DNA from: a bacterium
GTDB lineage: Bacteria; Campylobacterota; Campylobacteria; Campylobacterales; Sulfurimonadaceae
Assembly: GCA_018822665.1 (NCBI GenBank)
Contig: JAHJJX010000030.1
Span: 31,073 to 95,072, forward strand
Direction: 5' to 3'
DNA: 64,000 nucleotides
Shown here: piece by piece, positions 1 to 64,000 of the stretch
How positions within the stretch are numbered: the stretch's first letter is position 1
Layout: each line of letters begins with the position of its first letter
The notes under the pieces: generated by a model
Told to the model about the DNA's origin: nothing
Seen by the model: only the letters and a program-made list of their open reading frames with translations
The model's database searches: none
Program-made: the position numbers and the translations under genes

Positions 1-236
1 GGCAAATCTTCTTCTACTAAATGGGAGAGAAAATATTCCAGAGTAGGGGTTAGGTCTTCTTTGTTTAAGCCATATATTTTATAAGTCTGTTCAGACCATA
101 GCGTCTTATGGTTTTTTAAATCTACCTCCCAGCTGCCAAGATTTGAAATACTCTCAAACTGTTTAAAAGCGTCTTCTCTTGCTTTTAGTTTTAGTATGGC
201 GGTATTTAACGTATCCTGGAGTTCATTGTCTGGCAT
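1..236 (-). CDS. PAS-domain signalling protein, N-terminal fragment (continues past window edge)
   Basis: The minus-strand frame is open from the ATG at 236-234 to position 1. It reads MPDNELQDTLNTAILKLKAREDAFKQFESISNLGSWEVDLKNHKTLWSEQTYKIYGLNKEDL..., and GAGGA lies about 10 nt upstream. It is absent from the ORF track because it has no stop in the window. The SWEVDL...W...Y.IYG stretch looks like the start of a PAS fold. Confidence 0.5.
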   Translation of the reverse strand, partial: MPDNELQDTLNTAILKLKAREDAFKQFESISNLGSWEVDLKNHKTLWSEQTYKIYGLNKEDLTPTLEYFLSHLVEEDL

Positions 237-242
237 GTGGAA
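231..242 (-). repeat. Copy of over-represented word TTCCACATGCCA (reads TGGCATGTGGAA on + strand)
   Basis: Exact 12-mer. Its internal ATG is the start codon of the partial PAS gene. Confidence 0.9.
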
Positions 243-275
243 TAATTCCTCGTTTGTATGAAATTTAGAGAGTTT

Positions 276-839
276 TTAAAATAAATGTCCCATTTTGTCT
301 TTTTTTGTATTTATATAATCTTCATTATATTTATTAGATTTCATTATTATGGGAACCCTTTGAACAATCTCTATATTGCTGATGGAGTTAATCTTATCTG
401 GATTATTTGTGAGAAGCTTAATTTTATGAATGTTGAAGTGGTGAAGAATGTAAGTCACCATTTCATACGTTCTCTCATCTGCTCCAAAACCCAACTGATG
501 ATTTGCGTCTATGGTATTGTAGCCTTTGTCTTGAAGGGCATACGCATTTATCTTGTTTAAAAGACCTATGTTTCTTCCTTCTTGTCTTAGGTAAATTACC
601 ATTCCGTTTGTTTGAGATGCCAAATTTAAAGCATATTCCAACTGATCTCTGCAGTCACACTTTAAACTGCCAATAGCATCGCCGGTGAGACACTCTGAAT
701 GGACCCTGACTATCGGCACTTCATCAAGGTTGTCCGTGTATATGACTAGGTGTTCTTTTCCACCCTCTTTAAAGGCTTTGACTTTAAAATTACCAAATCT
801 TGAGGGTAAATTTGCTACTTCGGAAATTTCTATGTTCAT
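276..839 (-). CDS. ribA: GTP cyclohydrolase II (monofunctional RibA)
   Basis: VRVHSECLTGDAIGSLKCDCRDQL and IYLRQEGRNIGLLNKINAY are the classic GCH-II zinc and catalytic motifs. I prefer the ATG at 839 (MNIEISEV...). The track start at 914 is a TTG that overlaps the divergent hemB start. Confidence 0.85.
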   Translation of the reverse strand: MNIEISEVANLPSRFGNFKVKAFKEGGKEHLVIYTDNLDEVPIVRVHSECLTGDAIGSLKCDCRDQLEYALNLASQTNGMVIYLRQEGRNIGLLNKINAYALQDKGYNTIDANHQLGFGADERTYEMVTYILHHFNIHKIKLLTNNPDKINSISNIEIVQRVPIIMKSNKYNEDYINTKKDKMGHLF

Positions 840-905
840 TAATTTAAACTTTAAAACGATAAAATCTTTTTTAAAAAAAATTATTATATCAAAAAAAGGA
901 TTATT

Positions 906-1877
906 ATGTTTCAAAGATTTCGACGAAAACGCTTAAATAAACATCTCCGTGCATTGGTAAGAGAAACATCAGTGAGTATTGATGATTTTATTTACCCTCT
1001 CTTTGTTCGTTCAGGCAAAGCAATAAAAACGGAAGTTGCATCTATGCCGGGCGTGTATCAGATGAGTATAGATGAAATTATAAAAGAGTGTCGGGAATTA
1101 AAATCACTTGGTATTTATTCTATTATTCTTTTTGGCATCCCTGATGTTAAGGATTCTATCGGCTCTGATTCTCTTTGCGAGCACGGAATTATTGCATCTG
1201 CAATAAGAAGCATCAAAGAAGTGCATCCGGATATGTTTGTCGTTACGGACCTTTGTTTTTGTGAATACACGGACCATGGGCATTGCGGAATTATTGATGC
1301 AAAACATGAAACTGTTGAAAATGATGCAACTTTAAAAATCTCTGCTTCGCAAGCGATAGTCCACGCGAAGGCCGGCGCAGACATGATAGCACCATCAGGA
1401 ATGATGGATGGAATCATCGAAACATTAAGAGAAGCGCTTGATTCAAACGGATATGAAAATATTCCGATTATGAGCTACTCAACAAAATTTGCGTCAGGAT
1501 ATTACGGCCCGTTTCGTGATGTGGCAGAATCTACTCCAAGTTTTGGAGACCGTGCATCGTATCAAATGGACCCGGCAAACCGTAGGGAAGCAATAGCGGA
1601 AAGTATCTCGGATGAGGCTCAGGGAGCAGATATATTAATGGTAAAACCGGCTCTTGCCTATCTTGATATAGTAAGAGAAATAAAAGACAATACATCGCTT
1701 CCTTTGGCGGTTTATAACGTGAGCGGAGAGTATGCAATGTTGAAGCTGGCACAAAAACATAATTTGATTGATTATGAAAGAGTTGTCATGGAAACAATGA
1801 TTAGCTTTAAGAGGGCAGGAGCAGATATAATTATCTCTTATCATGCAAAAGAAGTTGCAAAAATGTTAAACTCTTAA
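906..1877 (+). CDS. hemB: Porphobilinogen synthase (delta-aminolevulinate dehydratase)
   Basis: Full-length ALAD-like 323 aa protein with [19 protein letters not shown] and [10 protein letters not shown] (active-site Lys) motifs. Confidence 0.9.
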
Positions 1878-1942
1878 TATTTTTTGTTTATTTAAAGAAA
1901 ACTATATTAAAATATGTAACTGTTCATTTTTAGGAAAATATA

Positions 1943-2869: not shown

Positions 2870-4060
2870 ATGAAAACAGTTTTAGCGATTTTTCTTGCTA
2901 CTAGTGTAATGTTTGGTGCTAAGGTCGTGGAAGTTGATGAGAGATTTCAAAAATCGCAAAGCTGCAAAGCGTGTCATTTGCGCATAGTAAAAGAGTGGGA
3001 TGAATCTTGGCATGCTAAATCTCACTACGAAAGCGATGAGTATTTTCGTGCCACAATTGATTATGTGAGCAGAAAAACAAGAAAAAGCTTGAATGGTGTA
3101 AAAGTCGAATGTGCGGCATGTCATAATCCAAGAATTTCTGTTACGAGTACAGATATGAATTATGAAATTATGGCTGTAATGGAATTGGACAAAGGCTCAA
3201 AAGTAAATCAAGCCCTCAGCAGCGATACGCTTAATGAGGGAATTAACTGTATCGTTTGTCACAATATTGATAAAATACATGCAGACAAAGATGCCTCTAT
3301 AAGAGGAATACACCGTGTAGAATGGAGTAAATCAGGGATAATGACCGGCCCGTACAATGATGCTTCCTCTCCCTATCATAAAGTGGAGCACCGTGATTTT
3401 ATGAGCAATAACTCTGAACAGTTATGTTTTGTGTGTCATGCAAATGATAAATCTGTAGAAGGCTTAGTTTTTACGGACATGCAAAGTGAATATCAAAAAG
3501 ATAAAAAATCTTGTGTTGATTGCCACATGGGAGAAGTGCAGCTTGGCGCGGCGGCATCACTCAAAATTGATAAAGGAAAAGTTAAAGAGAGAGAAATACG
3601 AGGGCACGGTTTTTCAGGGGCGCATTCTGCCGGCATGTGGGAAGATGCATTGGAACTTAGTTTATTGCAACAAGGGGACGAAATAGTTATTACTATTTCA
3701 AATCCTCAGCCGCATAATATTCCAAGCGGTTTTGGCTCTCGTGAATTAATACTTGATTTATCTTATAAAAAAGGCTTGAGTGAACTTGAAAATAGCTCCA
3801 TTTCATTAACAAGACACTATACAAGCAAGAGAGACAAGCCAACTATTCCCCATTTGGCTCTCAGTTCAACAAAAGATATGAGTATTCCTGCAAATGGAAC
3901 AAAAATATTAAAAGTACCGACTGTAAAAGGTGCGACTTTTGTAGATGTGAAATTATCTTTCCGTTTGGTAAATGATGAAGTGAAATCAATCTTAAATCTC
4001 AAAGAAGCAATTTGGTCAGAGAAATTTTTTATCGTATCTACTAGTTTGAAACTTAAATAA
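2870..4060 (+). CDS. Periplasmic multiheme c-type cytochrome (5 CxxCH)
   Basis: Signal peptide followed by CKACH, CAACH, CIVCH, CFVCH and CVDCH. The ATG directly abuts the argF stop codon. Confidence 0.75.
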   Translation: MKTVLAIFLATSVMFGAKVVEVDERFQKSQSCKACHLRIVKEWDESWHAKSHYESDEYFRATIDYVSRKTRKSLNGVKVECAACHNPRISVTSTDMNYEIMAVMELDKGSKVNQALSSDTLNEGINCIVCHNIDKIHADKDASIRGIHRVEWSKSGIMTGPYNDASSPYHKVEHRDFMSNNSEQLCFVCHANDKSVEGLVFTDMQSEYQKDKKSCVDCHMGEVQLGAAASLKIDKGKVKEREIRGHGFSGAHSAGMWEDALELSLLQQGDEIVITISNPQPHNIPSGFGSRELILDLSYKKGLSELENSSISLTRHYTSKRDKPTIPHLALSSTKDMSIPANGTKILKVPTVKGATFVDVKLSFRLVNDEVKSILNLKEAIWSEKFFIVSTSLKLK

Positions 4061-4070
4061 TATTAAAAAG

Positions 4071-4096
4071 TATAAAGCCTATTTCTAGGCTTTATA
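4071..4096. terminator. Hairpin between convergent genes (bidirectional terminator candidate)
   Basis: TATAAAGCCT-atttct-AGGCTTTATA forms a perfect 10-bp stem. It lies between the cytochrome stop (4060) and the stop of the minus-strand gene (4092). Confidence 0.55.
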
Positions 4097-6159: not shown

Positions 6160-6489
6160 ATGAATGTACAAATTCGTTCAAAAGGTGTTGCTCTGCATGG
6201 CGGTGTAAGGTCTCATGTGGAAGATGCAGTTGATGCTTTTAAAAAATTTCAGTTGGATATTACTACTGTTAATGTCAATATTTCAACAGAAAAAAAAGGT
6301 GTTGCAGTGGAGTTTGATATTCATATTGCGCACGCTCAGCCGGTTGTAATCAATCAAAGTGATGATGATTTAGATACAGCTATTGATTTGGCGATAGAAA
6401 GAGCTTCAAAAGCACTTCGTCGTATACATGGAAAGGTTACTTCTAAACAATCTGAATCTATTAAAGATTTAGAAACACTAGATGCTTAA
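6160..6489 (+). CDS. Short HPF/RaiA-family ribosome-associated protein
   Basis: 109 aa. The stretch INQSDDDLDTAIDLAIERASKALRR matches the sigma-54-modulation/HPF fold signature and is paralogous to the long HPF at 21786-22328. Confidence 0.7.
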   Translation: MNVQIRSKGVALHGGVRSHVEDAVDAFKKFQLDITTVNVNISTEKKGVAVEFDIHIAHAQPVVINQSDDDLDTAIDLAIERASKALRRIHGKVTSKQSESIKDLETLDA

Positions 6490-6500
6490 TTCCACATGCC
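6490..6500 (+). repeat. Copy of over-represented word TTCCACATGCC
   Basis: Exact 11-mer beginning 1 nt after the stop codon at 6489. It pairs with the near-copy GGCATGTGcAA at 6508-6518. Confidence 0.9.
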
Positions 6501-6515
6501 TAATTTTGGCATGTG
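6493..6515 (+). terminator. Hairpin built from inverted motif copies
   Basis: CACATGCC-taatttt-GGCATGTG forms a perfect 8-bp stem directly after the HPF-like gene. There is no clear U-tract. Confidence 0.4.
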
Positions 6516-6551
6516 CAAACCTCTCATTCTTTTCTGCTTAGGAAATCTTCT

Positions 6552-10415: not shown

Positions 10416-10859
10416 ATGAAATATTATGCTTATGAAAATTTTAAAAATGATGCAAACGCGTTGATACAAGAAATAAAAGAGTTTAATCCACAGGCGATTA
10501 TAGGTATAGCAAGAGGTGGCTTAACGCTTTCGCATGCGCTGGCTGAGGGTTTAAATATACGAGACGTTCAAACCATACGAACCGAACTTTATGATGCAGC
10601 AAACAAGAGGGAAGAACTTACAATCTGCGGGAGATGTTCTTTTGGTGATGTGCAAAGAGTTTTAGTTGTGGATGATATAGCAGACAGCGGCGATACGCTC
10701 AAAGCCGTTATGAATTATTTGGCATGTGGAGCGAGTGAGATTGAGTTTAAATCGGCAACACTTTTTTATAAAAAAACGTCTGTGTACGAGCCCCATTTTT
10801 GGATAAATGAAGCAGATGACTGGATAGATTTTTTTTGGGAAAGAGATTTTAAAAATTAA
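10416..10859 (+). CDS. Purine phosphoribosyltransferase (xanthine-guanine/hypoxanthine type)
   Basis: VLVVDDIADSGDTL PRPP-binding loop. The ATG at 10416 is preferred over the TTG at 10395, which would place the TATAAT box inside the coding sequence. Confidence 0.7.
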   Translation: MKYYAYENFKNDANALIQEIKEFNPQAIIGIARGGLTLSHALAEGLNIRDVQTIRTELYDAANKREELTICGRCSFGDVQRVLVVDDIADSGDTLKAVMNYLACGASEIEFKSATLFYKKTSVYEPHFWINEADDWIDFFWERDFKN

Positions 10860-12064: not shown

Positions 12065-12952
12065 ATGAAACGAATAAATGATTTAAACCTTGGCGTAAAG
12101 TATATGTTGCTCTCCTCATTTTTGTTTGCCATAATGGGAGCCTTTGCAAAGCTTTCAAGTGCCTACATGAGCTCTTTAGAAGTGGTGTTTTTTAGAAATA
12201 TTTTCGGTGTTGTGCTGATTGGTTTTGCTATTTACAAATCTCCAATGAAAAATATTGGGGGAAAGCCTCTTTTGCTTTTTTTTAGAGGGTTTATGGGTTT
12301 TAGCGCACTTTTGGCTTATTTTTATAATATTGCACATATTCCTCTTGGAGATGCCGCGACTTTTTCAAAAACCGCACCCATATTTACCGCTGTGTTTGCA
12401 TGGCTGTTTTTAAATGAAAAATTAACATTCAAAGCTTGGTTCGCTGTTATCATCGGTTTCATCGGGATACTTTTTATAACCCAGCCCGGCGGCATAGGTT
12501 TTTCCAAATACGATATTTTAGGTATTTTTAGCGGAGTCGGCGCGGCTCTTGCATACACCTCTGTGAGAGAACTGAGAAACTATTACGATACCAGAGCAAT
12601 CGTTATGTCATTTATGCTGATTGGGACGATAGGACCTTTGATACTCTTGATTATTTCACCTTATCTCCACATGCCGGAACTTGATTTTATGCTTGGAGAA
12701 TTTATTATGCCGCAGGGAATTGTATGGTTTTATATAGCCGGAATGGGTGTTCTTGCAACACTTTCTCAGTATTACATGACAAAGGCGTATGGGGAAACCA
12801 AAGCGGGAATTGTCGGGGCGGTGAGTTATACAAATATCATTTTTGCAATTATTGTCGGAACGCTGATGGGCGACTCTTTGCCTGACTTCATGATGGCATG
12901 TGGAATAGTGCTTATCATTTTTGCAGGAATAATGGTAGCCAGAGCAAAATAA
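12065..12952 (+). CDS. EamA/DMT-family transporter
   Basis: About 10 TM segments in a two-EamA-repeat pattern. The ATG at 12065 is preferred over 12047. Confidence 0.7.
   Translation: MKRINDLNLGVKYMLLSSFLFAIMGAFAKLSSAYMSSLEVVFFRNIFGVVLIGFAIYKSPMKNIGGKPLLLFFRGFMGFSALLAYFYNIAHIPLGDAATFSKTAPIFTAVFAWLFLNEKLTFKAWFAVIIGFIGILFITQPGGIGFSKYDILGIFSGVGAALAYTSVRELRNYYDTRAIVMSFMLIGTIGPLILLIISPYLHMPELDFMLGEFIMPQGIVWFYIAGMGVLATLSQYYMTKAYGETKAGIVGAVSYTNIIFAIIVGTLMGDSLPDFMMACGIVLIIFAGIMVARAK
12894..12905 (-). repeat. Copy of TTCCACATGCCA (TGGCATGTGGAA on + strand)
   Basis: Exact 12-mer inside the EamA CDS, read as M-A-C-G-I. Confidence 0.9.
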
Positions 12953-13008: not shown

Positions 13009-13800
13009 ATGACATTATTGGCAGGACCTTGTGTTATTGAGAGTGAAGAAAACATTTTTAAAATTGCAAAGTCTTTAGAGGTTTATCACAAAGATAGCTC
13101 TATAGATTTTTATTTCAAGTCGAGTTTTGACAAAGCAAACAGAACATCATTGGATAGTTTTCGCGGGCTTGGTCTTGAAGAGGGACTTCGAATTTTAGAA
13201 AAAGTAAAAAATGATTTTGGCTATAAAGTGGTAACGGATGTGCATGAATCACATCAGGTGCCAAGTGTAGCCGAGGTTGTAGATATGCTTCAAATTCCGG
13301 CTTTTTTATGTCGTCAGACGGACTTGCTCGTGGCATGTGCAAAAACTACCAAAGAGGTAAATATCAAAAAAGGGCAGTTTATTAACCCTCCCGATATGAA
13401 ATACTCGGTAGCAAAAGTTCTTAAAACGCGCGGCTGTGATGAAGTGAGTTATGAAAACTCCAAAAAACACGGAGTCTATCTGTGTGAGAGAGGCTCCTCT
13501 TTTGGCTATGGCAATATTGTTGTTGATATGCGCTCTTTGGTCATTATGAGAGAATTTGCTCCGACTATTTTTGATGCAACGCACTCTGTTCAGATGCCCG
13601 GAGCACTTGGCGGCAAAACAGGCGGAGACAGCTCGATGGTTCCCTATTTAGCAAGTGCAGCAGCAGCAGTCGGAGTGGACGGTTTCTTTTTTGAGACACA
13701 CTTTGACCCGAGCATAGCTCTGAGTGACGGCCCAAATATGATAAAACTTGAAGAGCTTAGTGCTCTTGTAAACAAAATTAAAAAAATTCAAGCAATATAA
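13009..13800 (+). CDS. kdsA: 3-deoxy-8-phosphooctulonate synthase
   Basis: [19 protein letters not shown] and [11 protein letters not shown] are KDO8P synthase motifs. Confidence 0.9.
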
Positions 13801-14690: not shown

Positions 14691-17102
14691 ATGAAAAAAA
14701 TTGCTTTATTAGTTTTGTTTTTTACTACTATCCTTTTTGGTGCAAATGAGTGTATCTCTTGCCATAAAGGGATAGAAGATATCAGAGATAAAAACTCTGA
14801 TATGATGAAGGCAATACTAAGAGTGGCAGACAAAGCCGGGCACATCGGTAACGATTGTATCGTTTGTCATGGCGGAACTCCTGAGAGTAAAAACAAAGAC
14901 AAAGCGCATTCGGGAACAGTCAAATATTTTAAAACAAACAAAGGTCCAAAAGAATTTTACCCGGCACCCGGCAGCACTTGGATTAACCAAAATACATGCG
15001 GCACGTGCCATGAAAATCAAATCTCCTCTCAGATGAATTCTTTAATGATGACCGAACAGGGTAAGATTCAAGGCGCACTTTGGAGTTTTGGAGCAATAAA
15101 CGGTTATCAGCATGACGTGGGTACCTACGTTACACAAAATCCGGAAGATGCACATAAAAGACTTGGAACGGAGGCATATAGAAATTATATGCAAAAACTC
15201 TCTTCTATGGAACCTCAGGCTTTTCCTTCTCAAATGAGAGAGCTTCCCGCTGCTCCGAGTGCAGACGAAGTACAAAAAGACCCATCCCTTGCAGTATATA
15301 CCTATCTTCGCCAAGAATGCCTTCGATGTCATACAGGTTCTAAAGGGAGACAGGTTCGCGGCGATTACAGGGGAATAGGCTGTGCTTCTTGTCATATCCC
15401 TTACTCCAATGAAGGCTATTATGAGGGTAAAGATAAAAGCATAAATAAAAAAAATCCCGGACATCTCTTAGTACACTCCATCCAGTCCTCCCGTGATGTA
15501 AAAGTAAAAGTACATAAAGTCGAATACTCCGGAGTTCCGGTTGAAACATGTTCCACATGCCATAACCGCGGAAAAAGAATAGGTGTTTCGTACCAAGGTT
15601 TGATGGAGAGTGCGTACAGTTCAACTTTTGATGAAAGCGGAAATGAACAGCCAAAACTTCATACAAAAAGATATATGCATATGCAAGAAGATATTCACTT
15701 CCAAAAAGGGATGCTGTGTCAGGATTGTCACACATCCAACGATTTGCATGGGGATGGATTTTTAGGCGGGGCGAATGCCGCTGCCGTTGAGGTGGAATGT
15801 CAGGATTGCCATGGAACTACAAAAGCGTATCCTTGGGAATTGCCGCTTGGATATTCGGATGAGTTTAGCACACAGCACGCAAGGGGTGAAGGCAGAGGTA
15901 CCACTCAAACAATGGCTGAGTATTTGAAGCAGGGAAGTTTTAATGAGCCTCGGGATGGTTACCTTTTGACGGCTCGCGGAAATCCTCTTGTACATGCGGT
16001 AAAAGAGGGCGATAAAATTATAGTGCATTTGGCAAGCGGAAAAGACATAGAACTCACACCGCTTAAAAAATTAAAAGAGCAGGAAAAACTTTCCAAAAAA
16101 GCTTTGCTTGCAATGGATACAATTTCCGCGCATACCGATAATATGGAATGTTATACATGTCACGCAACTTGGGCTCCCCAGTGTTATGGCTGTCATGTGA
16201 AAATTGATTATTCGCAGGGAAAACAAAATCCGGATTATTTAGCAGCCTCGCATGATCAGGATATTCATGGAAAAACAGGCGGGATGAAAGATTTGAAAAA
16301 ATATCTTGTAGATGGGAAAGTTACCGAGACGAGAAGTTTTTTAAGATGGGAAGACCCGCCGCTTTCACAAAACGGAGAAGGAAGAATCTCTCCGACCGTG
16401 CCGGGATGCCAAACAACCATAACTGTTATAGGAAAAGACGGAAAAGCTTTGCTTCAGAATCATATTTATAAGATTCCAAATGTTGAAGGGGCAGGGGATG
16501 AAGGTCAAAATGCTATTGATATGGCACCGATTCAACCGCATACGATTTCAAAAGAATCAAGAAGTTGCGAGAGTTGTCACACCTCCCCCAAAGCTATGGG
16601 AATGGGAATCGGAGGAACAAAAAGCAGTGTGAAAGACCCATCTCTTACGACGATTACAGATATTATGAGTGCAGAGGGGAAAATATTGCCGACGATTGTC
16701 GATGAGCAGATTCCCGCAATCCTCAATCTTAAATATGATTATTCCAGATTTTTAGACGAAAACGGCACACAGCTTCAAACACTCGGGCATCACTGGACAC
16801 TTTCTGCTCCGCTGAGCAAAGAGCAAAGAGACAAGTTAGACCGTGAGGGCATGTGTATCTCTTGTCATCAAGATATACCAAAAGGAAATTTGGCGGTATC
16901 TGCAATGACACACATAGCAAAAATGGCAGAAATTACGATAGATAAAAAAATGCACGCAGAAATTTTGAATAAAACATTAAATATTGCGGCTTGGGTTCAA
17001 GTTTTAGGTGGAATTTTTGTTGGAATGCTTATGATGCTGGGAATATATCATGTATTTTTTAGAAAAAAAGAAATAAATCCGAAAAATGAAGGGTGGAAAT
17101 AG
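14691..17102 (+). CDS. Membrane-anchored multiheme c-type cytochrome (12 CxxCH)
   Basis: Signal peptide, then 12 CxxCH motifs: CISCH, CIVCH, CGTCH, CLRCH, CASCH, CSTCH, CQDCH x2, CYTCH, CYGCH, CESCH, CISCH. A C-terminal TM helix reads WVQVLGGIFVGMLMMLGIYHVFF. Confidence 0.8.
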   Translation: MKKIALLVLFFTTILFGANECISCHKGIEDIRDKNSDMMKAILRVADKAGHIGNDCIVCHGGTPESKNKDKAHSGTVKYFKTNKGPKEFYPAPGSTWINQNTCGTCHENQISSQMNSLMMTEQGKIQGALWSFGAINGYQHDVGTYVTQNPEDAHKRLGTEAYRNYMQKLSSMEPQAFPSQMRELPAAPSADEVQKDPSLAVYTYLRQECLRCHTGSKGRQVRGDYRGIGCASCHIPYSNEGYYEGKDKSINKKNPGHLLVHSIQSSRDVKVKVHKVEYSGVPVETCSTCHNRGKRIGVSYQGLMESAYSSTFDESGNEQPKLHTKRYMHMQEDIHFQKGMLCQDCHTSNDLHGDGFLGGANAAAVEVECQDCHGTTKAYPWELPLGYSDEFSTQHARGEGRGTTQTMAEYLKQGSFNEPRDGYLLTARGNPLVHAVKEGDKIIVHLASGKDIELTPLKKLKEQEKLSKKALLAMDTISAHTDNMECYTCHATWAPQCYGCHVKIDYSQGKQNPDYLAASHDQDIHGKTGGMKDLKKYLVDGKVTETRSFLRWEDPPLSQNGEGRISPTVPGCQTTITVIGKDGKALLQNHIYKIPNVEGAGDEGQNAIDMAPIQPHTISKESRSCESCHTSPKAMGMGIGGTKSSVKDPSLTTITDIMSAEGKILPTIVDEQIPAILNLKYDYSRFLDENGTQLQTLGHHWTLSAPLSKEQRDKLDREGMCISCHQDIPKGNLAVSAMTHIAKMAEITIDKKMHAEILNKTLNIAAWVQVLGGIFVGMLMMLGIYHVFFRKKEINPKNEGWK
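15551..15562 (+). repeat. Copy of TTCCACATGCCA
   Basis: Exact 12-mer inside the cytochrome CDS, read as (C)-S-T-C-H, so it overlaps a heme motif. Confidence 0.9.
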
Positions 17103-17533
17103 TGAAAAAATTATTACTCATTGTGGCATGTGGAATCACTTTGCTTGCAAATGATATTATTATTAAACAGAGCAAGTATAGTGTTTCGCAAACGATTGAA
17201 AATATCAAAGATATAGTTAAAAGCAAAGGAATGGGCGTGTTTGCCATTATCAATCATCAAGGAAATGCAGGAATGGTTGGCATGCAAATACAGGAATCCA
17301 AGCTTATTATTTTTGGAAATCCAGAGCTTGGAACTCCGTTAATGCAAGAAAATATTTTAGCTTCATTGGACTTACCTCTGAAAGTTTTAGTGTACAGAGA
17401 CAGTGAAAATAAAGTGAAACTGGCTTATAGAAATGCAACGTGGCTTCAAGGCATTCATGGCTTTAAAAACAATGAAGCGGTAATGAAAATAGATGAGGGA
17501 TTAGACAAAATAACGGATAAAGCAAGCAAATGA
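17093..17533 (+). CDS. DUF302-family periplasmic protein
   Basis: Signal peptide. The stretch VFAIINHQ...LIIFGNPELGTPLMQ...LDLPLKVLVY is typical of DUF302. The GTG start overlaps the cytochrome stop. Confidence 0.6.
   Translation: MEIVKKLLLIVACGITLLANDIIIKQSKYSVSQTIENIKDIVKSKGMGVFAIINHQGNAGMVGMQIQESKLIIFGNPELGTPLMQENILASLDLPLKVLVYRDSENKVKLAYRNATWLQGIHGFKNNEAVMKIDEGLDKITDKASK
17124..17135 (-). repeat. Copy of TTCCACATGCCA (TGGCATGTGGAA on + strand)
   Basis: Exact 12-mer inside the DUF302 CDS, read as V-A-C-G-I. Confidence 0.9.
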
Positions 17534-19947: not shown

Positions 19948-21744
19948 ATGCAGCTTACTCAAGAGCAAGACAGCAAGTTTAAAAAACTAGGTATTACCGC
20001 GTGGTGCGAACTTGCTCTTATCGTTCCGCATTCTTATGAAGATTTGCGTCTTCACGAGAAAATGAAAATCCACATGCCACAACTCATAGATGCGACTGTT
20101 GAATCCGTGCACCGCGCTCCAAACTCCATTCAGATAAACTTTTTTGCTCATAACTTTGGACATACCGTTCATGGAGTTATTTTTCACCCAAAGCCCTATA
20201 TGCTTCATCAGTATAAGGTCGGGGAGAGAGATTATTTTTACGGGGTTATAGAATGCAGTATCGGCAACTGTACAATGAGTATGCCAAGAAAAGTTACAAC
20301 AGTCGGTAACATTACTCCAAAGTATAAGTCGGCTTTGAGAGCGGATGTTATGGTTCGATTTATATCGCAAAATTTAACCTATGAAAACTTAAAATCAGAA
20401 GGTTTAAACAGTGAGGTTATTGAGGAGATACTGAAACTTCATTTTCCGGCAGACGAAATTTTGCAAATGAAGGCATTGAGTCAAAAAACAATAGATGCAC
20501 TCAAATATACGGAGCTGTTTTCTTACATGAAACAAGTGGCGAACAAGAGAAGATATTTTGAGCCTTTGGCATGTGGAAGCAATGATTATGTTGAATGGGC
20601 AAAAACTTTGCCTTTTAAGCTGACAAAAGAACAAACAGAGACAATTGAAGAGATAAAACAAGACTTGTCTAAAAATGTAGCCGCAAAAAGAATGATAGTA
20701 GGAGATGTAGGGTGCGGGAAGACAATGGTCATTTTGGCCTCAGCGGTTATGATGTCGCCAAAGCGTTCCATCTTGATGGCTCCAACAACCATACTCGCAA
20801 ATCAGCTTTATGAAGAGGCTGTAAAATACCTTCCACATGCTAAGATTGTTTTAGTAACCAACAAAACAAAAAAGGTAGATTTAAATGCATTTGATTTTAT
20901 AATCGGAACACATGCTCTATTATACAGAGAACTTCCACATGCCGAGCTTGTTATGGTGGATGAGCAACATCGTTTTGGTACAGCGCAAAGAAAGATGTTG
21001 GAAAAACTTGTAAGCAGCGGAGCAAAAAAGCCACACTTTTTGCAGTTCTCCGCTACTCCGATTCCAAGAACACTTGCAATGATTGAAACGGCACACATTG
21101 ATGTGAGTTTAATCACCTCTACCCCTTTTAAAAAAGATATTACGAGTAAGGTTATTCATAAAAGTGATTTTAAAGAATTGCTTGAACATATAAAAAGCGA
21201 AGTAAAAAAAAATAATCAGGTTTTGCTTGTGTATCCTTTAGTTCAAGAAAGTGAAGTTTTAGAATACCAGAGCATTGAAGAAGCGCGCGGATATTGGGAA
21301 AAAAGTTTTGAGAATGTATATGTTACGCACGGCAAAGATAAAGATAAAGAGGAGATACTTATAGAGTTTCGTGATAAAGGAAGCATACTCATAGCAACGA
21401 CGGTTGTTGAAGTGGGTATTTCCATTCCACGACTCAGTACGGTTGTAATAGTAGGTGCGGAACGTTTGGGTTTATCTACCTTGCATCAGTTAAGAGGTAG
21501 AGTGAGCAGAACAGGGCTTAAAGGCTATTGTTACCTGTACACAAATCAAAGCACATCGGAGCGGTTGGATAAATTTGTAAAGACTATGAGTGGCTTTGAG
21601 ATAGCAAATTTGGATTTAAAATTTAGAAAAAGCGGAGATTTATTAAAAGGGACGAATCAAAGCGGAAATCAGTTTAAATGGGTGGATATTGCCGAAGATG
21701 CAGAGATAGTTAAAAATGTTAAAAATGATTTGGGGATTATTTGA
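19948..21744 (+). CDS. recG: ATP-dependent DNA helicase RecG
   Basis: GDVGCGKT (Walker A), DEQHRFG, SATPIPRT, QLRGRVSR and the TRG-like C-terminus. Confidence 0.9.
   Translation: MQLTQEQDSKFKKLGITAWCELALIVPHSYEDLRLHEKMKIHMPQLIDATVESVHRAPNSIQINFFAHNFGHTVHGVIFHPKPYMLHQYKVGERDYFYGVIECSIGNCTMSMPRKVTTVGNITPKYKSALRADVMVRFISQNLTYENLKSEGLNSEVIEEILKLHFPADEILQMKALSQKTIDALKYTELFSYMKQVANKRRYFEPLACGSNDYVEWAKTLPFKLTKEQTETIEEIKQDLSKNVAAKRMIVGDVGCGKTMVILASAVMMSPKRSILMAPTTILANQLYEEAVKYLPHAKIVLVTNKTKKVDLNAFDFIIGTHALLYRELPHAELVMVDEQHRFGTAQRKMLEKLVSSGAKKPHFLQFSATPIPRTLAMIETAHIDVSLITSTPFKKDITSKVIHKSDFKELLEHIKSEVKKNNQVLLVYPLVQESEVLEYQSIEEARGYWEKSFENVYVTHGKDKDKEEILIEFRDKGSILIATTVVEVGISIPRLSTVVIVGAERLGLSTLHQLRGRVSRTGLKGYCYLYTNQSTSERLDKFVKTMSGFEIANLDLKFRKSGDLLKGTNQSGNQFKWVDIAEDAEIVKNVKNDLGII
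20567..20578 (-). repeat. Copy of TTCCACATGCCA (TGGCATGTGGAA on + strand)
   Basis: Exact 12-mer inside recG, read as L-A-C-G-S. Confidence 0.9.
20933..20943 (+). repeat. Copy of TTCCACATGCC
   Basis: Exact 11-mer inside recG, read as L-P-H-A. A 1-mismatch copy, TTCCACATGCtA, lies at 20831-20842. Confidence 0.9.
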
Positions 21745-28914: not shown

Positions 28915-28942
28915 TTTTCCGCATGCAATGGCATGTGGAAAA
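28915..28942. repeat. Inverted pair of motif copies forming a 12-bp hairpin
   Basis: TTTTCCGCATGC-aatg-GCATGTGGAAAA forms 12 bp with one G.U pair. It lies 8 nt past the fliW stop and upstream of the giant-protein promoter. Confidence 0.8.
28929..28940 (-). repeat. Copy of TTCCACATGCCA (TGGCATGTGGAA on + strand)
   Basis: Exact 12-mer, intergenic. It abuts the 2-mismatch inverted copy TTCCgCATGCaA at 28917-28928. Confidence 0.9.
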
Positions 28943-36543: not shown

Positions 36544-38367
36544 TTATATTTTAGATATTCCCATTAGTTTCATACTAATGCTATTTGCAGCTGTAGCTGC
36601 TATATTTGAGTCTTCGGTGCCAATGAGAGTATTGAATTCTTGCGTGAAATCTTTAACTCTCATGTTGTCGCTCATCCCTTTTAGCTTGATTGTACTTTTT
36701 TTCCACATGCCAGAGTTATTTTCAGCGATTGCACTATGAATAGACTCAATTAAAAGAGCACTCTCGTGAACAAAATCTTCAAAAAGTTCATTGAAGCTCT
36801 CTATGGCGATACCGATTTCATTGGCTATATATTTTTTATTATAATCCATCGGAATATAGATTTCTTTTTTTGTTTCTGTGATTATATGAGCTTTAGTATT
36901 TTTTTTCTCTTCTACAGGCTCATGCACAGCCTCCTGCTCTTCATTTTTGGAATCAAGAGCTACAACCGACAGCTCTTGCGTAAGTAATATATTTTCGTCT
37001 TCTTCAGGATTTGCTTCAAGTAATAAGTCATTATCGTCTATTTCATATAAATCATCTTTTTGATTATTTAGGAACTCATCGTCAGCCAATTCAGCCATAG
37101 CTATTTTTTGGGGTACGTGAGAATCTTCAATGGTATCGTCTTTGAAATCTATATATAAGCTATCGTCATCTTCGGCGTCCTCAGACGTTTTAGCTATTTC
37201 AGCGGTTGCAGTTTCTTCTTTTTCAGAAAACATATCATCATCATCTTTAAATTCTATTTCTGAAAAATCGTCATAGTTTTCATCTTCACTCTCACTTTTT
37301 GCCACAGTTGCAGAAGCAGCGGAAACTTTATGGACTTCCTGCTCGTTGCCAATCTCTTTTCCTGAAAGTTTTCTTATGATTTTATAAAATGCATCTAGAT
37401 TTGCTTTTATTTCTTTATTGTTATCTGAAGTATTAATCGTTGAAAGTGCTTCAAATGCGTCTTCAACTCGTAAATTAGCAGCAACCCCTTTAAGCTTATG
37501 GGATAATATCTTGACATTGTTATGGTCATTATCTTTGAGCGCAGAATAGAGGTTTTCTTTAAATTCTTCAGCTTGATTTATAAAGTCTTGAATAAATTCT
37601 TCTATGAGATCTACCGGCAATCCCAACTCATCGGATGCAACTTGTGGATCAAAAACATAGCTGTCATCAAAAGTGATGTTTTCTGCGCTAGTTTCCTCTT
37701 CAAATTCTACGTGAATATCATCAAGGTCTAGTCTGAGTTCATTATCTTGAGTATCAGCGACAGGAGAAATATTGCTCAAACTGCTTTGTAGTTTTTCGGG
37801 AATATCATCAATTTTGATTTCAGAAGAAGAGTCTTCGGATATATCTTCAATAATATCTTTTTCTAAAACTTGAGGACCGGTATCGGATGCATAGGGATCA
37901 TCAATCGTAACCGTTTCTTGGAAATCATTGAAAGATGTTGTAAGTTCCGGCACATCCAATTTTGCATTATGCGAAATAGTTGTTTTGGGAACAGACTTTT
38001 CTAAAACATCTTGAGCAATTTTTTCATTTTCTTCATGTGTTAATATTTTTAAGTTAGTTAAATTGACTAGATAGGCTTTTAAAGACGGATTGTCAATGAG
38101 GTAAGCAGTGCTTATATCTATTATGCATTTATAGTTTTTATTGTTTGCATGTATGATAACTTTTGAATTTTCACTCGACTCTGCACATGTAATAAAATCT
38201 ATCCAGTGAACATGTTTAAAGTTATGAACATACCCCGGTGTTTTAACAAACAAATCAGCAAAATCGGACGATTCTTTGAGAAGCTGCGATAAGTCCTTAA
38301 AGCCTAAAGCTTCCAAGTCATGTTTGTCAATTCCTAGAAATTCTCTATTGTGGTTGTAAATTAGCAT
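36544..38367 (-). CDS. Acidic Hpt-domain phosphorelay protein (one canonical Hpt, one His-less Hpt-like repeat)
   Basis: ILSHKLKGVAANLRVEDAFEAL is a canonical Hpt helix. The C-terminal STIKLKGMSDNMRVKDFTQEF aligns to it with His replaced by Ile. The middle of the protein contains long D/E-rich tracts. Confidence 0.65.
   Translation of the reverse strand: MLIYNHNREFLGIDKHDLEALGFKDLSQLLKESSDFADLFVKTPGYVHNFKHVHWIDFITCAESSENSKVIIHANNKNYKCIIDISTAYLIDNPSLKAYLVNLTNLKILTHEENEKIAQDVLEKSVPKTTISHNAKLDVPELTTSFNDFQETVTIDDPYASDTGPQVLEKDIIEDISEDSSSEIKIDDIPEKLQSSLSNISPVADTQDNELRLDLDDIHVEFEEETSAENITFDDSYVFDPQVASDELGLPVDLIEEFIQDFINQAEEFKENLYSALKDNDHNNVKILSHKLKGVAANLRVEDAFEALSTINTSDNNKEIKANLDAFYKIIRKLSGKEIGNEQEVHKVSAASATVAKSESEDENYDDFSEIEFKDDDDMFSEKEETATAEIAKTSEDAEDDDSLYIDFKDDTIEDSHVPQKIAMAELADDEFLNNQKDDLYEIDDNDLLLEANPEEDENILLTQELSVVALDSKNEEQEAVHEPVEEKKNTKAHIITETKKEIYIPMDYNKKYIANEIGIAIESFNELFEDFVHESALLIESIHSAIAENNSGMWKKSTIKLKGMSDNMRVKDFTQEFNTLIGTEDSNIAATAANSISMKLMGISKI
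36701..36712 (+). repeat. Copy of TTCCACATGCCA
   Basis: Exact 12-mer inside the minus-strand Hpt gene. The coding strand reads G-M-W-K. Confidence 0.9.
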
Positions 38368-45674: not shown

Positions 45675-45685
45675 TAGAAGTGAAC

Positions 45686-45721
45686 ACAATTATTTACAGG
45701 GTTTGCCCTGTAAATAATTGT
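45686..45721 (+). terminator. Strong hairpin after guaA
   Basis: ACAATTATTTACAGGG-tttg-CCCTGTAAATAATTGT forms a perfect 16-bp stem. No U-tract follows it. Confidence 0.6.
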
Positions 45722-45748
45722 ACCGTGAACAGATTTTTCACATTTTAG

Positions 45749-45760
45749 TTCCACATGCCA
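45749..45760 (+). repeat. Copy of TTCCACATGCCA
   Basis: Exact 12-mer, intergenic (guaA-hemD). It shares the longer string TTCCACATGCCAAGA with the copy at 49111. Confidence 0.9.
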
Positions 45761-45782: not shown

Positions 45783-46418
45783 ATGTCAAAGCCTATTTAT
45801 CTTTTTTCAATCTCCACACATCCTCGTGCGATATCTATCAATTCTTTGGATATTCAATTTTTAAAACCAAATATAGATTTCTCTCAATATGATTATTTCA
45901 TTATCACTTCAAAACAATCGAGTGAAGCGTTAAAACAGTATGAAAGTACAAAATATTTAAATAAACCCGCGCTTTGCGTCTCCCTCCAAAGTGCTTTGTC
46001 TTATGAAAAGATAGGCGGTAAAATCCTAGAAATAGGCAGCGGCTATGGAGACAACTTAATTACAAAAATTAACAATTATCCAAAAACAACGAAATGGCTT
46101 TATTTGAGAGCTGAAGTGGTCGCTTCTGATTTTGTAAAAATATGCAAAGAAGAGGGATATAACATAGATGAAGTTGTGATGTATAAGAGTGAATGTTCAC
46201 AAGACATATGGCATGTGGAAGTGGAAGAAGAAGCTGTTTTAATCTTTACATCGCCATCAAGTGTTGAATGTTTTTTAAAAAATCACAGCATAAGTCCTCG
46301 TGCAAAAATCATAGTAATAGGAAAAACGACAGCTGCCGCTTTACCAAAGGGCGTAGAATATTATATTTCTGAAAAAACGACTATTGACAGTTGTATGGAG
46401 ATAGGACTGAGTTTGTGA
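45783..46418 (+). CDS. hemD: Uroporphyrinogen-III synthase
   Basis: 211 aa with a HEM4-like two-lobe pattern (YDYFIITSKQSSEAL...VLIFTSPSSVECF...IVIGKTTAAAL). Confidence 0.55.
   Translation: MSKPIYLFSISTHPRAISINSLDIQFLKPNIDFSQYDYFIITSKQSSEALKQYESTKYLNKPALCVSLQSALSYEKIGGKILEIGSGYGDNLITKINNYPKTTKWLYLRAEVVASDFVKICKEEGYNIDEVVMYKSECSQDIWHVEVEEEAVLIFTSPSSVECFLKNHSISPRAKIIVIGKTTAAALPKGVEYYISEKTTIDSCMEIGLSL
46209..46220 (-). repeat. Copy of TTCCACATGCCA (TGGCATGTGGAA on + strand)
   Basis: Exact 12-mer inside hemD, read as W-H-V-E. Confidence 0.9.
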
Positions 46419-49110: not shown

Positions 49111-49122
49111 TTCCACATGCCA
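49111..49122 (+). repeat. Copy of TTCCACATGCCA
   Basis: Exact 12-mer beginning 6 nt after the stop at 49105. Confidence 0.9.
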
Positions 49123-49169: not shown

Positions 49170-49375
49170 GTAGTCTGGGTAGTTCGACCTACGCAAATAT
49201 GAGGGTTCTACATTATCAACTGGTGAACTAGTAAAACTTCTGTGTGTCGGTGCTCTCGCTTGAGGCATGTTAACTCTACCGATGAGAATGCCGCCGTTAT
49301 GAAGTCTTCTCTTCGCCCTAATTCGGCTTTGAGAACCAAAGCTAATTGTGAAACGGCTACCCGGGCTATTTTAGG
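49170..49375 (+). ncRNA. ssrS: Candidate structured sRNA upstream of purD (6S RNA-like rod)
   Basis: This is a 320-bp non-coding gap that looks GC-richer than its surroundings. Nested long-range pairings are CUGGGUAG (49175-49182) with CUACCCGG (~49358-49365), GGUUCU with AGAACC, ACUUC with GAAGU, CGGU with GCCG, and GGCAU with AUGCC, giving an imperfect rod with internal loops. As I recall it, the 6S RNA gene of Helicobacter/Campylobacter lies next to purD. Confidence 0.45.
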
Positions 49376-49440
49376 AAAGTTATTTCGTGAATATATTTTG
49401 ATATTTTCATTAAATAATTTAAAATTATATGGAGATGTGG

Positions 49441-50706
49441 ATGAAGATTTTAATTTTAGGTAGTGGTGCTAGAGAATACTCTATAGCTCGCGCAATTTTG
49501 AATGAAAATGCGGGGCATGAACTCTTTTTTATGCCGGGAAACGGTGCAACAAGTGAGCAAGGCACAAACTTAAATATTAAAGATTACGACTCTCTTGCAC
49601 AGTATGCAAAACAAAATAATATAGAATTGACCATCGTAGGACCAGAAGGTCCTTTAGTGGATGGTGTTGTAGATATTTTTAAAAAAAACGGACTTGTCAT
49701 TTTTGGACCGAGCAAGGCCGCTGCACAGCTTGAGGGCTCAAAAGTTTATATGAAAAACTTTTTGGCAAAATACAAAATTCCAACGGCTCGTTATATTGAA
49801 ACTTCGTCTATTGAAGATGCCTTTAAATTTTCAAATACTTTATCGACACCAATCGTTGTAAAAGCCGATGGACTTTGCGGCGGGAAGGGTGTTATTATTG
49901 CTCAGACCCATAATGAAGCAAAAGTTGCGATTTCCGAAATGCTGAGTGGAAAAAGTTTTGGAGATGCAGGCAAAAGTGTTATTGTGGAAGAATTTTTAGA
50001 CGGCTATGAGCTTTCTATGTTTGCGGTTTGTGATGGGGATGATTATATCCTTCTTCCGGCTGCACAGGACCATAAAAGACTTAAAGATAATGACGAAGGG
50101 CCAAATACAGGGGGAATGGGTGCGTATGCTCCGACACCGCTTGTGGATGAGGCGCTTTACCAAAAAGTAAGAGACAGAGTGATTCGTCCAACACTTGATG
50201 GCATGAACAAAGAAGGCGCACCTTTTGAAGGTGTACTTTTTATCGGGATTATGGTTGTAAACGGTGAACCGATTACATTAGAGTTTAATGTTCGTTTTGG
50301 TGATCCTGAATGTGAGATTCTCATGCCGCTTATGACATCAAGCGTGAGCGATATGTTTTTAAAAGCTGCTACAAACAGATTGAGTGAGATAAAAGTGGAA
50401 TTTTCTAAGCAGTACGCTGTGGGTGTTGTTATGGCGAGTGAGAATTACCCTTATGGAAGCTCAAAACCTGCTGAAATTATTTTAGATGATATTCATCATG
50501 AAGAGATAGAAAAATATACACATATTTCTTATGCCGGCGTTAGCAAAGAAGATGGAATTCTATATGCTGATGGCGGAAGAGTTTTAGTCTGCGTTGGACT
50601 CGGCGACAGCATAAAAGAGGCAAGAGATAGAGCTTATCTGCGATGTGGTCAAGTTCATTTTGCCGGTAAAAAGTTAAGAACAGATATCGCTTATCAGGCA
50701 CTCTAG
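49441..50706 (+). CDS. purD: Phosphoribosylamine--glycine ligase
   Basis: [14 protein letters not shown]..., ATP-grasp core, and [14 protein letters not shown] lies 5 nt before the ATG at 49441. Confidence 0.95.
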
Positions 50707-53972: not shown

Positions 53973-53973
53973 A

Positions 53974-56904: not shown

Positions 56905-56944
56905 CGTTCAATATAAAATAAAATTCTTATGACAGAGGGTTAGA

Positions 56945-62347: not shown

Positions 62348-64000
62348 ATTTAAGTGTAAAAAATAAAACGCTTCTTTTTACGGTATTGGTAATATTTGTA
62401 TTTGCGAGTATTATTTTAGGGCTTATTTATGTTAAACAAAAAGACACTCTTATAGAAACGCAAAAAGAATATTTTGAGAATGTAAAATATTTATATTCAA
62501 AAGTCAAAAGCAAACATGAAAATTTTTATATCAATTGGAGTTTGTTAAATCTGGAATCAATGGGTATCAAAGAAGCGTTCTATAATCAAAATAGGGAAGA
62601 GTTGTACAAATTATCACATACAATCTGGAATACACTTCAAAAAGAAAACAAAGATTTAGCCTTAATGAGTTTCCACATGCCAGATGGAACGGTTTTTTTA
62701 AGAATGCATGATATTGATAATTTTGGAGACAATGTATCGAATTCGAGAACAATGGTAAGAAAAGTGCATATCAAAAAAAATGTATTATTCGGTTTTGAAT
62801 CATTTTCAAATAATTTGGCATATAGAATCTTTCAGCCGATTTTTTATAAAGAAAAATATATAGGCGCTCTGGAATTTGGACTGCGACCAGATTATATTTT
62901 AAATGATGTAAATTACTATCATAAAGTTGATGGGGCTTTATTTGTTAAAAATACAGAACAAAATGGGTTCTTAAAAAAAACTTCGAAAATTAATGATTTT
63001 GTTTTGCAATACAATGTTTTGCTTAATGAAAAGTTATTAACTTATTTTCCAGAGAATTATAATTTTGAAAGTTTTATCAATATAAATACGCCAGACGGTG
63101 ACACATGGTCAGTTTATTCATTTGATTTAAAAGATTTTAATAATGATGTTGCAGCGAAAGTAATATTTTTTAAAGATATTACAAATGATATTTTGGAATT
63201 TAAAAACAGCATTATAAATTTAACAATTATTCTCATGATTTTAACGGTAATTGTTTTTGTTGTTGTAAATATTGGCTTTAACAGCAGTATTAGAAATTTA
63301 GAAAGAAAATATATTGATGTCAGTGCATATAAAAATATGGTTGATGAGAATGTCCTTATTTATTCTATTGATTTAAATGGGATTATTTTGGATGTAAGTG
63401 ATGCGTTTTGCAGAATTTGCGGCTTTAGTCAAAAGGAATTGATTGGCAAGTCTTTTGAAGTTTTTGCGCATCCGGAACTTTCTAAAGAGTTTTTTACAAA
63501 AATATGGGAAAGTTTGAAGTACAAAAAAACTTGGACAGGAGATGTTAAAAACTTAAAAAACAATGGGAAATATTATTGGACACATGTCAATATACAACCC
63601 AGACTGAGAGAAAACTTATTGGTTGGTTATGATGTCATTATGCATGATATCACAGATAAAAAGATAAATGAAGAGTTGTTGGTGACGGATGGCTTGACAC
63701 ATATTTACAACCGAAGATATTTTAACGATATATTTCCGAGAATGATTAAAAGTGCACAGAGGGATGGCGGCTATCTAAGTTTTTTAATCTTAGATGTGGA
63801 TAATTTTAAATTATATAATGACACGTACGGGCATCAAGCAGGAGATAAAGCACTTATAGCGGTTGCAAATGTTTTGAACGAATCTTTAAACCGCGGAGAT
63901 GATTTTTGTTTTAGACTAGGAGGGGAAGAGTTTGGAGTTCTTTATAAAAGCAGCAATGAGGAAGATGCTTACCTTTTCGCACAGAAGTTTAGAAAAAATA
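62344..64000 (+). CDS. Cache-like sensor / PAS / GGDEF diguanylate cyclase (partial, runs off window)
   Basis: The ATG at 62344 overlaps the upstream stop (ATGA). Features are SFHMPDGTVFLRMHDIDNFGDNVSNSR (Cache-type motif), TM, PAS (ELIGKSFEVFAHPELSKEFF...W.GDVKN), and a GGDEF domain with RLGGEEFGVL. It is missing from the ORF track because it has no stop in the window. Confidence 0.75.
   Translation, partial: MNLSVKNKTLLFTVLVIFVFASIILGLIYVKQKDTLIETQKEYFENVKYLYSKVKSKHENFYINWSLLNLESMGIKEAFYNQNREELYKLSHTIWNTLQKENKDLALMSFHMPDGTVFLRMHDIDNFGDNVSNSRTMVRKVHIKKNVLFGFESFSNNLAYRIFQPIFYKEKYIGALEFGLRPDYILNDVNYYHKVDGALFVKNTEQNGFLKKTSKINDFVLQYNVLLNEKLLTYFPENYNFESFININTPDGDTWSVYSFDLKDFNNDVAAKVIFFKDITNDILEFKNSIINLTIILMILTVIVFVVVNIGFNSSIRNLERKYIDVSAYKNMVDENVLIYSIDLNGIILDVSDAFCRICGFSQKELIGKSFEVFAHPELSKEFFTKIWESLKYKKTWTGDVKNLKNNGKYYWTHVNIQPRLRENLLVGYDVIMHDITDKKINEELLVTDGLTHIYNRRYFNDIFPRMIKSAQRDGGYLSFLILDVDNFKLYNDTYGHQAGDKALIAVANVLNESLNRGDDFCFRLGGEEFGVLYKSSNEEDAYLFAQKFRKN
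62671..62682 (+). repeat. Copy of TTCCACATGCCA
   Basis: Exact 12-mer inside the partial GGDEF gene, read as F-H-M-P. Confidence 0.9.

Follow-up and report, generated by a model that had tools for sequence, protein, structure and literature searches.

A hyper-abundant DNA word in Sulfurimonas-like bacteria as a candidate uptake or self-recognition sequence

To our knowledge, only in two proteobacterial families has DNA uptake been firmly established as sequence-specific, and a receptor is known only in Neisseria. The two words concerned are the DNA uptake sequence (DUS) of Neisseriaceae (AT-GCCGTCTGAA) and the uptake signal sequence (USS) of Pasteurellaceae (AAGTGCGGT core; Hin and Apl types), for which biased uptake followed by homologous recombination amounts to a molecular drive (PMC2397512, PMC3630211). 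The HIP1 octamer of cyanobacteria (GCGATCGC) has recently been proposed to be related to uptake or transformation (bioRxiv 10.1101/2024.09.10.611283; 10.64898/2026.06.24.733823). In the phylum Campylobacterota, C. jejuni is reported to take up only DNA in which a short motif has been methylated by CtsM, via a T2SS/T4P system (T2SS, type II secretion; T4P, type IV pilus) (PMC8468864), and this is a precedent within the phylum for discrimination of self DNA at the uptake step. Here we describe a word of 10 to 12 nucleotides, TTCCACATGCC or in its longer form TTCCACATGCCA, found in a 64-kb stretch of contig JAHJJX010000030.1 (the window) from a Sulfurimonas-like bacterium. The word is in excess by hundreds of times above chance in the source bacterium and in three related species. 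By analogy it may be a DUS/USS-like uptake or self-recognition word kept by a transformation-linked drive, an explanation to which we give slightly less than an even chance.

Abundance, structure and genic context of the word

Pattern searches on both strands of the window found 14 exact copies of TTCCACATGCC, seven on the plus and seven on the minus strand, and 11 of these are followed by an A that extends them to TTCCACATGCCA. The sites, the 12-mer extension and the lack of strand bias are all as in the original prediction, which had been made by eye. Only 0.01 copies are expected from dinucleotide-preserving shuffles of the window and 0.06 from a 4th-order Markov model of it. When synonymous codons were shuffled and the proteins kept, the coding copies averaged 0.94 with a maximum of 4 in 200 shuffles, while 8 are observed. 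The excess over chance claimed in the original prediction is therefore real, and does not come from composition, codon usage or peptide content. In an unbiased k-mer census of the window, the word and its sub-words were the top non-trivial 9-, 10-, 11-, 12- and 13-mers. Allowing up to two mismatches gave 29 matches against 5.1 expected, among them every near-copy previously listed (6507, 10720, 13331, 20068, 20831, 28917 and 56152, the first now placed at 6507). The spacing of the copies is indistinguishable from random (coefficient of variation 0.90 vs 0.92), and no periodic or even spacing was detected in the window. The copies and their contexts are as follows.

231..242, minus strand: exact 12-mer TTCCACATGCCA; intergenic, 34 nt past the stop of the GTP cyclohydrolase II gene (276-914, minus strand), sense to the gene
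6490..6518, both strands: inverted pair TTCCACATGCCt-N5-TGGCATGTGcAA; begins 1 nt past the stop of an HPF-like gene (6160-6489)
10720..10731, minus strand: CTCCACATGCCA, one mismatch, 10-mer core intact; antisense within coding sequence, A-C-G
12665..12676, plus strand: copy CTCCACATGCCG with the 10-mer core intact; within an EamA transporter gene
12894..12905, minus strand: exact 12-mer; coding, EamA transporter gene, antisense, A-C-G
13331..13342, minus strand: one-mismatch copy TTGCACATGCCA; coding, antisense
15551..15562, plus strand: exact 12-mer; coding, sense, multihaem cytochrome gene (14691-17102), S-T-C-H
17124..17135, minus strand: exact 12-mer; coding, DUF302 gene, antisense, A-C-G
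20068..20079, plus strand: one-mismatch copy ATCCACATGCCA; recG, sense, H-M-P
20567..20578, minus strand: exact 12-mer; recG, antisense, A-C-G
20831..20842, plus strand: one-mismatch copy TTCCACATGCTA; recG, sense, P-H-A
20933..20944, plus strand: exact 11-mer (TTCCACATGCCG); recG, sense, P-H-A
28917..28940, both strands: inverted pair TTCCgCATGCaA/TGGCATGTGGAA; 10 nt past the fliW stop
36701..36712, plus strand: exact 12-mer; coding, Hpt-domain gene, antisense, G-M-W-K; conserved in the related locus L006
40104..40115, minus strand: exact 11-mer; uvrC, sense, P-H-A
45749..45760, plus strand: exact 12-mer; intergenic, 75 nt past the guaA stop
46209..46220, minus strand: exact 12-mer; coding, hemD, antisense, W-H-V-E
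49111..49122, plus strand: exact 12-mer; intergenic, 6 nt past the stop of a 904-aa gene, upstream of the purD RNA motif
62671..62682, plus strand: exact 12-mer; intergenic, 324 nt past a stop; internal ATG at 62677

The structure of the word was derived from a set that pools the window with three genomic loci from relatives and with 35 metagenome contigs of low GC that bear the word (381 kb after deduplication, with 134 exact 11-mers). Part of this set was ascertained through inverted pairs, and statistics from ascertained and unascertained sequences were kept apart. In the pooled logo the core TCCACATGCC is essentially invariant and stands in the context a-t-[T/A]-core-[A/G]-a. Position 1 is T in 80% and A in 16% of cases, position 12 is A in 81% and G in 14%, and there are weaker preferences for A-T ahead of the word and A behind it. 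These are the only flank preferences in the logo, from which helically phased AT-tracts beside the core are absent. Variants with one mismatch cluster at positions 1, 3 and 11, and the central CACATGC almost never varies. The flanks of the 14 window copies are unrelated, with no conservation beyond about 2 nt. Since nothing longer than the word is conserved, it is not a remnant of a repetitive extragenic palindrome (REP), a miniature inverted-repeat transposable element (MITE) or an insertion sequence (IS); the original prediction had already argued this for the last two.

Six of the 14 exact copies in the window are intergenic. Five of them lie 1-75 nt past stop codons, within the 1-80 nt first given for all of them, and the sixth (62671) lies at 324 nt. 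The coding copies are read as A-C-G, W-H-V, S-T-C-H, P-H-A, H-M-P and G-M-W-K, and the ATG at 62677 opens an open reading frame (ORF), PAS-GGDEF-like as judged by eye, that runs off the end of the window; the claim of at least five frame and strand contexts and one use as a start codon is thus borne out. In the pooled set all six frame/strand combinations are used, with preference for xTT-CCA-CAT-GCC (P-H-A) and antisense GCA-TGT-GGA (A-C-G). A peptide-level cause is ruled out by this use of six frames and by the excess that survives codon shuffling, and conservation acts on the DNA, as had been supposed. In the four loci that were not selected via the word, 15 of 44 copies (34%) are non-coding against about 9.5% expected (p 7e-6), and the pooled non-coding copies are mostly found 2-40 nt past stop codons. 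An enrichment near stop codons, put forward earlier for checking, is therefore present.

Both pairs in the window are imperfect inverted repeats, 1 and 10 nt after stop codons. As folded hairpins they reach -13.4 kcal/mol (z -3.6) for the 6490/6507 pair and -13.2 kcal/mol (z -4.6) for the fliW pair (28917/28929); the single intergenic copies in the window gave no hairpin on folding. Metagenomes were scanned for pairs with the pattern TCCACATGCC-N0-30-GGCATGTGGA. Among the matches listed there are at least dozens of contigs of 29-39% GC with (T)TTCCACATGCCA-loop-TGGCATGTGGAA(A), whose loops, 0-30 nt long, are unrelated to one another; many of the contigs have single copies in addition. All five unascertained pairs are likewise placed just past stop codons.

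Distribution and evolution in related lineages

Of the Lon neighbourhoods compared, from 79 species, only those of L002, L003 and L006 carry the word, each having 6-12 copies of the core in 14-22 kb. The repeat count in relatives thus points to the lineage specificity that the original prediction had left to be checked. Synteny with these relatives is conserved at about 72% nucleotide identity, and orthologous word positions can therefore be compared. The uvrC site reads GGCATGTGGAAC in all four word-bearing species, while 19 other species have the same length and unrelated bases. The recG codons at 20933 read TTCCACATGCCG in the window and TTCCAGATGCTG, TACCAAACGCAG or others elsewhere, again with the length unchanged. 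Copies therefore arise by point substitution and not by insertion. Judging from these alignments, the coding copies are point substitutions, some of them non-synonymous, at places open to change in the protein. A cassette insertion of 12 nt (4 codons) was considered and is ruled out by equal orthologue lengths at uvrC, recG 20933 and other sites.

The word is also maintained once formed. Between L002 and L003, which share 80% nucleotide identity, 7 of 7 aligned sites are intact compared with 17% of background 10-mers (p 4e-6). The 60-nt flanks of the same sites diverge as the background does (0.80 vs 0.81), which speaks against recent transfer of whole segments as the source of the shared sites. 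The 3' pair of fliW is conserved in L002 and L003, and one arm is left in L006. A further species, L001 (JAPLGO010000038.1), clusters with L002 and L003 in 100% of bootstraps in a phylogeny built on two proteins, Lon and UvrC, and nevertheless keeps 0 of 9 sites despite 79% identity to L003. Remnants are found in L001 at the orthologous positions, for example in uvrC and recG, with a mean of 8.1 matches out of 12 versus about 6.2 in outgroups, and after fliW the perfect pair of its relatives is replaced by a degenerate hairpin, TTTTCACATGTAGCGTGGAAA. Most simply read, these sequences point to a force, specific to the lineage, that keeps the word in place and that L001 has lost. L001 would then serve as a natural 'off' genome, and the contrast between such sister species (L002 and L003 vs L001) makes the responsible gene findable by comparative genomics.

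Applied to the other loci, the census found that several lineages of Sulfurimonas type have strongly over-represented 8-12-mers of their own, which reach counts of 27 per 22 kb where fewer than 2 are expected. The word cTTACATGTAAg occurs in L051, L044, L048, L034 and L019; in L051 the 9-mer TTACATGTA was counted 27 times over both strands, that is, about 13 sites in 22 kb. L070 has TCTACATGTAGA, and L050 has only its TACATGTA core without flank preference. The word AAACGCAG occurs in L030, L054, L010 and L008, with all copies in the sample coding, and TATCATGATA in two Sulfurospirillum-like loci, L052 and L053. In L042 the word TTAGCATCA uses a single frame in 10 of 13 copies and may act at the peptide level. 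Strand skew is absent in every non-palindromic word tested among these. Several are palindromes centred on CATG, a centre which they share with the word of the window.

Two sites in recG can be compared across these lineages. At 20567 the window has TGGCATGTGGAAGC, L050 has TGACATGTAGAAGC, which is near CTACATGTAG, the word of the L050 and L070 loci, and L070 has TTACATGTAAGG; at 20933, TACCAAACGCAG is found in species bearing the AAACGCAG word. The local word thus falls at the same permissive sites in different lineages. Given that the other words are not uniform, AAACGCAG being all coding and TTAGCATCA mostly in one frame, we treat them as related observations and not as one proven system. 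It is conceivable, if unlikely, that Sulfurimonas and its relatives have fast-switching genome-wide words, lineage-specific and either on or absent, which are set by a horizontally mobile specificity determinant. Candidates for it would be a module for the uptake receptor, or a methyltransferase together with a reader. If this is true, the determinant would rewrite chromosomal sites by the hundred over the time in which species form and would mark out compartments of gene flow among co-occurring species.

Some repeats from the census are of another kind. In the enterohepatic Helicobacter loci L067, L069, L065, L058 and L060, words with GATTC/GAATC exceed expectation 4-8-fold without strand skew; examples are GAGATTC and GATTCCA, the latter with 59 copies in 22 kb. 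GATTCCA was considered as a related dialect and set aside, its excess being weaker (5-8-fold) and the word shorter and centred on GATTC/GAATC; it is probably a different phenomenon. Two further loci hold repeat elements and not short words: L025 a tandem array of about 20 copies of GAATTACTT, and L021 a longer repeat around TTGACTTAG, in about 9 copies whose flanks are conserved.

Candidate role in DNA uptake and rival explanations

An uptake role is proposed because, at the level of sequence, the word combines the features typical of DUS and USS: a length of 10-12 nt, lack of polarity, substitution as its origin, conservation that stops at the word, enrichment as hairpin-forming pairs just past stop codons, restriction to a clade and neutral decay once the maintaining force is gone. 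A sequence-specific component of the uptake or transformation pathway would bind double-stranded DNA carrying the word. This component could be a surface or periplasmic DNA receptor, and would possibly read a CATG-centred, perhaps methylated, site. Fragments from the same species that carry the word would be preferentially taken up and recombined, and the resulting bias would be a molecular drive, fixing word-creating point mutations at permissive coding and intergenic positions and keeping existing copies intact. Inverted pairs just past stop codons would double as hairpins at transcript ends. Upon loss of the reader protein the copies would decay at the neutral rate. The uptake bias, the receptor and the competence of the organism are the parts of this proposal that we infer.

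Among known systems, the Neisseriaceae DUS is similar in many respects. It is a non-palindromic word of 10-12 nt, occurs in both orientations and within genes, is enriched between genes, forms hairpins from inverted pairs downstream of genes, has shared or variant words in relatives, and combines tolerant outer positions with a strict core. However, its sequence is unrelated and it belongs to another phylum. The DUS receptor is the minor pilin ComP, of which no homologue was recognised here. DUS dialects differ by 1-3 nt, whereas the words here are entirely different among congeners and one sister species has no word. The Pasteurellaceae USS shares hyper-abundance, lack of polarity, point substitution at permissive coding sites, preferred reading frames and pairs that form terminator-like hairpins; it differs in taxon and sequence and in the phased AT-tracts by its core, which are missing here. 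HIP1 is likewise hyper-abundant in coding and non-coding DNA, with sites conserved above background and a 4-base palindromic centre (GATC, a methyltransferase target, where the word has CATG), and true palindromes (TACATGTA and TATCATGATA) are found in lineages related to the window. By this comparison HIP1 is the closest palindromic analogue, although HIP1 is a palindromic octamer found nearly phylum-wide, while TTCCACATGCCA is asymmetric over its 10-12 nt, palindromic only in its CATG centre and limited to a few species. The RAATTY mark of CtsM in C. jejuni comes from the same phylum and shares discrimination at the uptake step, a T2SS/T4P-type machine and a short motif with a palindromic centre. 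RAATTY is, however, a 6-mer read through methylation, whereas here 10-12 bases are specified with a more than 200-fold excess, and we know of no report that RAATTY is hyper-abundant. Taken by sequence, the word would belong with hyper-abundant lineage-specific genomic words of the DUS, USS and HIP1 type, and its on/off, patchy evolution would be unusual among them.

The hallmarks of DUS and USS named in the original prediction are thus recovered in abundance, both orientations, tolerance inside genes, pairs after stop codons and lineage restriction; density, the patchy on/off words and the HIP1-like CATG centre depart from them. These departures and several other points weigh against an uptake role. 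DUS and USS occur at about 1 per kb, and the density of the word, 0.22-0.6 copies per kb, is 2-4 times lower. The words are patchy and wholly different between congeners, in contrast to DUS dialects, which track phylogeny (PMC3630211). In the two-gene tree the bearers of AAACGCAG form two pairs apart from each other, both supported at 100%, and monophyly of the word has 0% support. The CATG centre and the palindromic relatives suggest a dimeric or methylation-linked reader. All counts rest on the 64 kb of the window and about 0.4 Mb (about 380 kb) of related contigs, and hold at the level of window and contig. No report of natural transformation in Sulfurimonas was found in the literature searched.

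A cluster of four genes of type IV minor-pilin type (22392-28779, minus strand) also bears on this question. It encodes two prepilin-like proteins, with the N-termini AFTMIEL and AFSMIEL, one PilX-like protein and a 1471-aa DUF6701/MshQ-like protein. It may be machinery; no PDB structural relatives of its proteins were found. No copy of the word lies in the cluster. Many Sulfurimonas species have the cluster in well-conserved form whether they carry a word or not, and its identity tracks phylogeny and not the word, which also counts against an uptake role. This lack of co-variation gives no support to the cluster as the specificity determinant. Family scans of the window ORFs found neither comEC nor dprA. 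As to the literature, the original prediction knew of no uptake sequence in Campylobacterota, and full-text searches likewise returned, within the literature covered, no report of this word or of any uptake sequence in Sulfurimonas or Campylobacterota; the sequence itself matched only eukaryotic primers. In a viral collection, from which phages of these hosts may be absent, the pair pattern had no match and the 14-mer only chance-like single matches.

If an uptake role is true, DUS/USS-like uptake extends to a new phylum and to environmental chemolithoautotrophs, the free-living Campylobacterota. The word would then be a simple genomic marker of DNA-exchange partners in sulfidic habitats, and adding it to constructs might render bacteria that are hard to engineer transformable. 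The CATG centre and the palindromic sister words would also connect the DUS/USS and HIP1 puzzles.

Other explanations have to be considered beside uptake, among them a HIP1-like function and an array of binding sites. In the latter, the word would be bound by a chromosomal protein with no part in uptake, either a nucleoid-structuring protein or a 'self' marker that shields the chromosome from a nuclease or defence system independently of orientation. Hundreds of sites would be under selection, and a lineage that replaces or loses the protein would replace or lose its word. Conservation confined to the word, with decay once the maintaining force is gone, is what such an array would give, the CATG centre and the palindromic words of relatives fit dimeric DNA-binding proteins, and a structural role has been proposed for HIP1 on similar evidence (PMC5861425). 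On the other hand, the copies in the window are spaced as at random, the preference for inverted pairs just past stop codons is not explained by selection for binding alone, and no candidate protein was identified. We regard the array as an unlikely explanation.

Somewhat less likely still is that the word is a functionless by-product of sequence-specific biased repair or gene conversion, which would turn near-matches into the word; the enzyme might belong to methyltransferase-linked very-short-patch (VSP) repair or be a nicking enzyme centred on CATG. Origin by point substitution agrees with this, as do the near-invariance of CACATGC beside variable outer positions and a patchy on/off distribution that would suit a mobile enzyme gene. 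However, VSP-type repair corrects one specific mismatch and gives modest enrichment, and a 200- to 1000-fold excess of a 10-12-mer goes beyond this. Family scans of the window ORFs also detected no methyltransferase or Vsr-like gene, and CATG is neither avoided nor enriched in the window (observed/expected 0.85).

It is very improbable that the word is a Chi- or KOPS/AIMS-type polar signal of the chromosome, one that AddAB or FtsK would recognise and that would be co-oriented with replication. Such signals are also short, species-specific and over-represented, including within genes. Yet the copies in the window are oriented 7:7 although GC skew is positive in 13 of 16 4-kb bins, and orientation is unbiased in the related loci too (3:6 in L002, 4:8 in L003 and 3:3 in L006). 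Unpaired copies in the pooled set number 24 on the G-rich strand versus 39 on the C-rich strand (p 0.08), and 10-12 specified bases with frequent inverted pairs are unlike signals of this type. Lacking orientation bias and being randomly spaced, the copies therefore support neither Chi, KOPS nor periodic models. Least credible of all is an origin from a small mobile repeat (REP/BIME, MITE or Correia-like), of which the copies would be remnants or cores; this is the REP-like alternative named in the original prediction's title. Some intergenic copies do form inverted repeats, but no sequence is conserved beyond about 15 nt, the loops between paired copies range over 0-30 nt and are unrelated in sequence, and roughly half of all copies sit in coding sequence, with no indels against orthologues.

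Genomic setting of the window

The window is about 36% GC and about 93% of its DNA is coding. Its Lon protease has 88-91% identity to those of Sulfurimonas metagenome-assembled genomes and isolates. Pfam and NCBIfam scans found the core genes ALAD, OTCase, TrpRS, Der, NusB, RecG, Lon, UvrC, GuaA, PurD, PNPase and a P-type ATPase, along with two-component proteins, c-di-GMP proteins and multihaem cytochromes. By this gene content the window is core chromosome of a Sulfurimonas-like organism. As ordinary core genes are found throughout it, the word is scattered through the core chromosome.

Tetranucleotide counts (observed/expected) show strong avoidance of GATC (0.21) and moderate avoidance of GGCC (0.49). 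This suggests restriction systems against GATC and GGCC. A link of the word to restriction-modification at CATG was considered and is unsupported, CATG not being avoided while GATC and GGCC are.

The recG gene (19948-21744) holds the word four times within 900 nt, twice as an exact 11-mer and twice with one mismatch. This cluster and the conserved uvrC copy recall the reported bias of DUS to genome-maintenance genes, although the numbers are small. One RNA motif was also detected, and motifs of its family are typical of the phylum Campylobacterota:

49231-49366, plus strand: purD RNA motif (Rfam RF01069, 71 bits), upstream of purD (49429-50706)

About 110 nt further upstream of this motif lies a copy of the word. 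Directly 3' of guaA there is a nearly perfect stem-loop of 19 bp (45683-45724), 25 nt before the copy at 45749. Two multihaem cytochromes with MtrC/MtrF-like domains are encoded at 2870-4060 and 14691-17102, and the larger gene carries a sense copy of the word.

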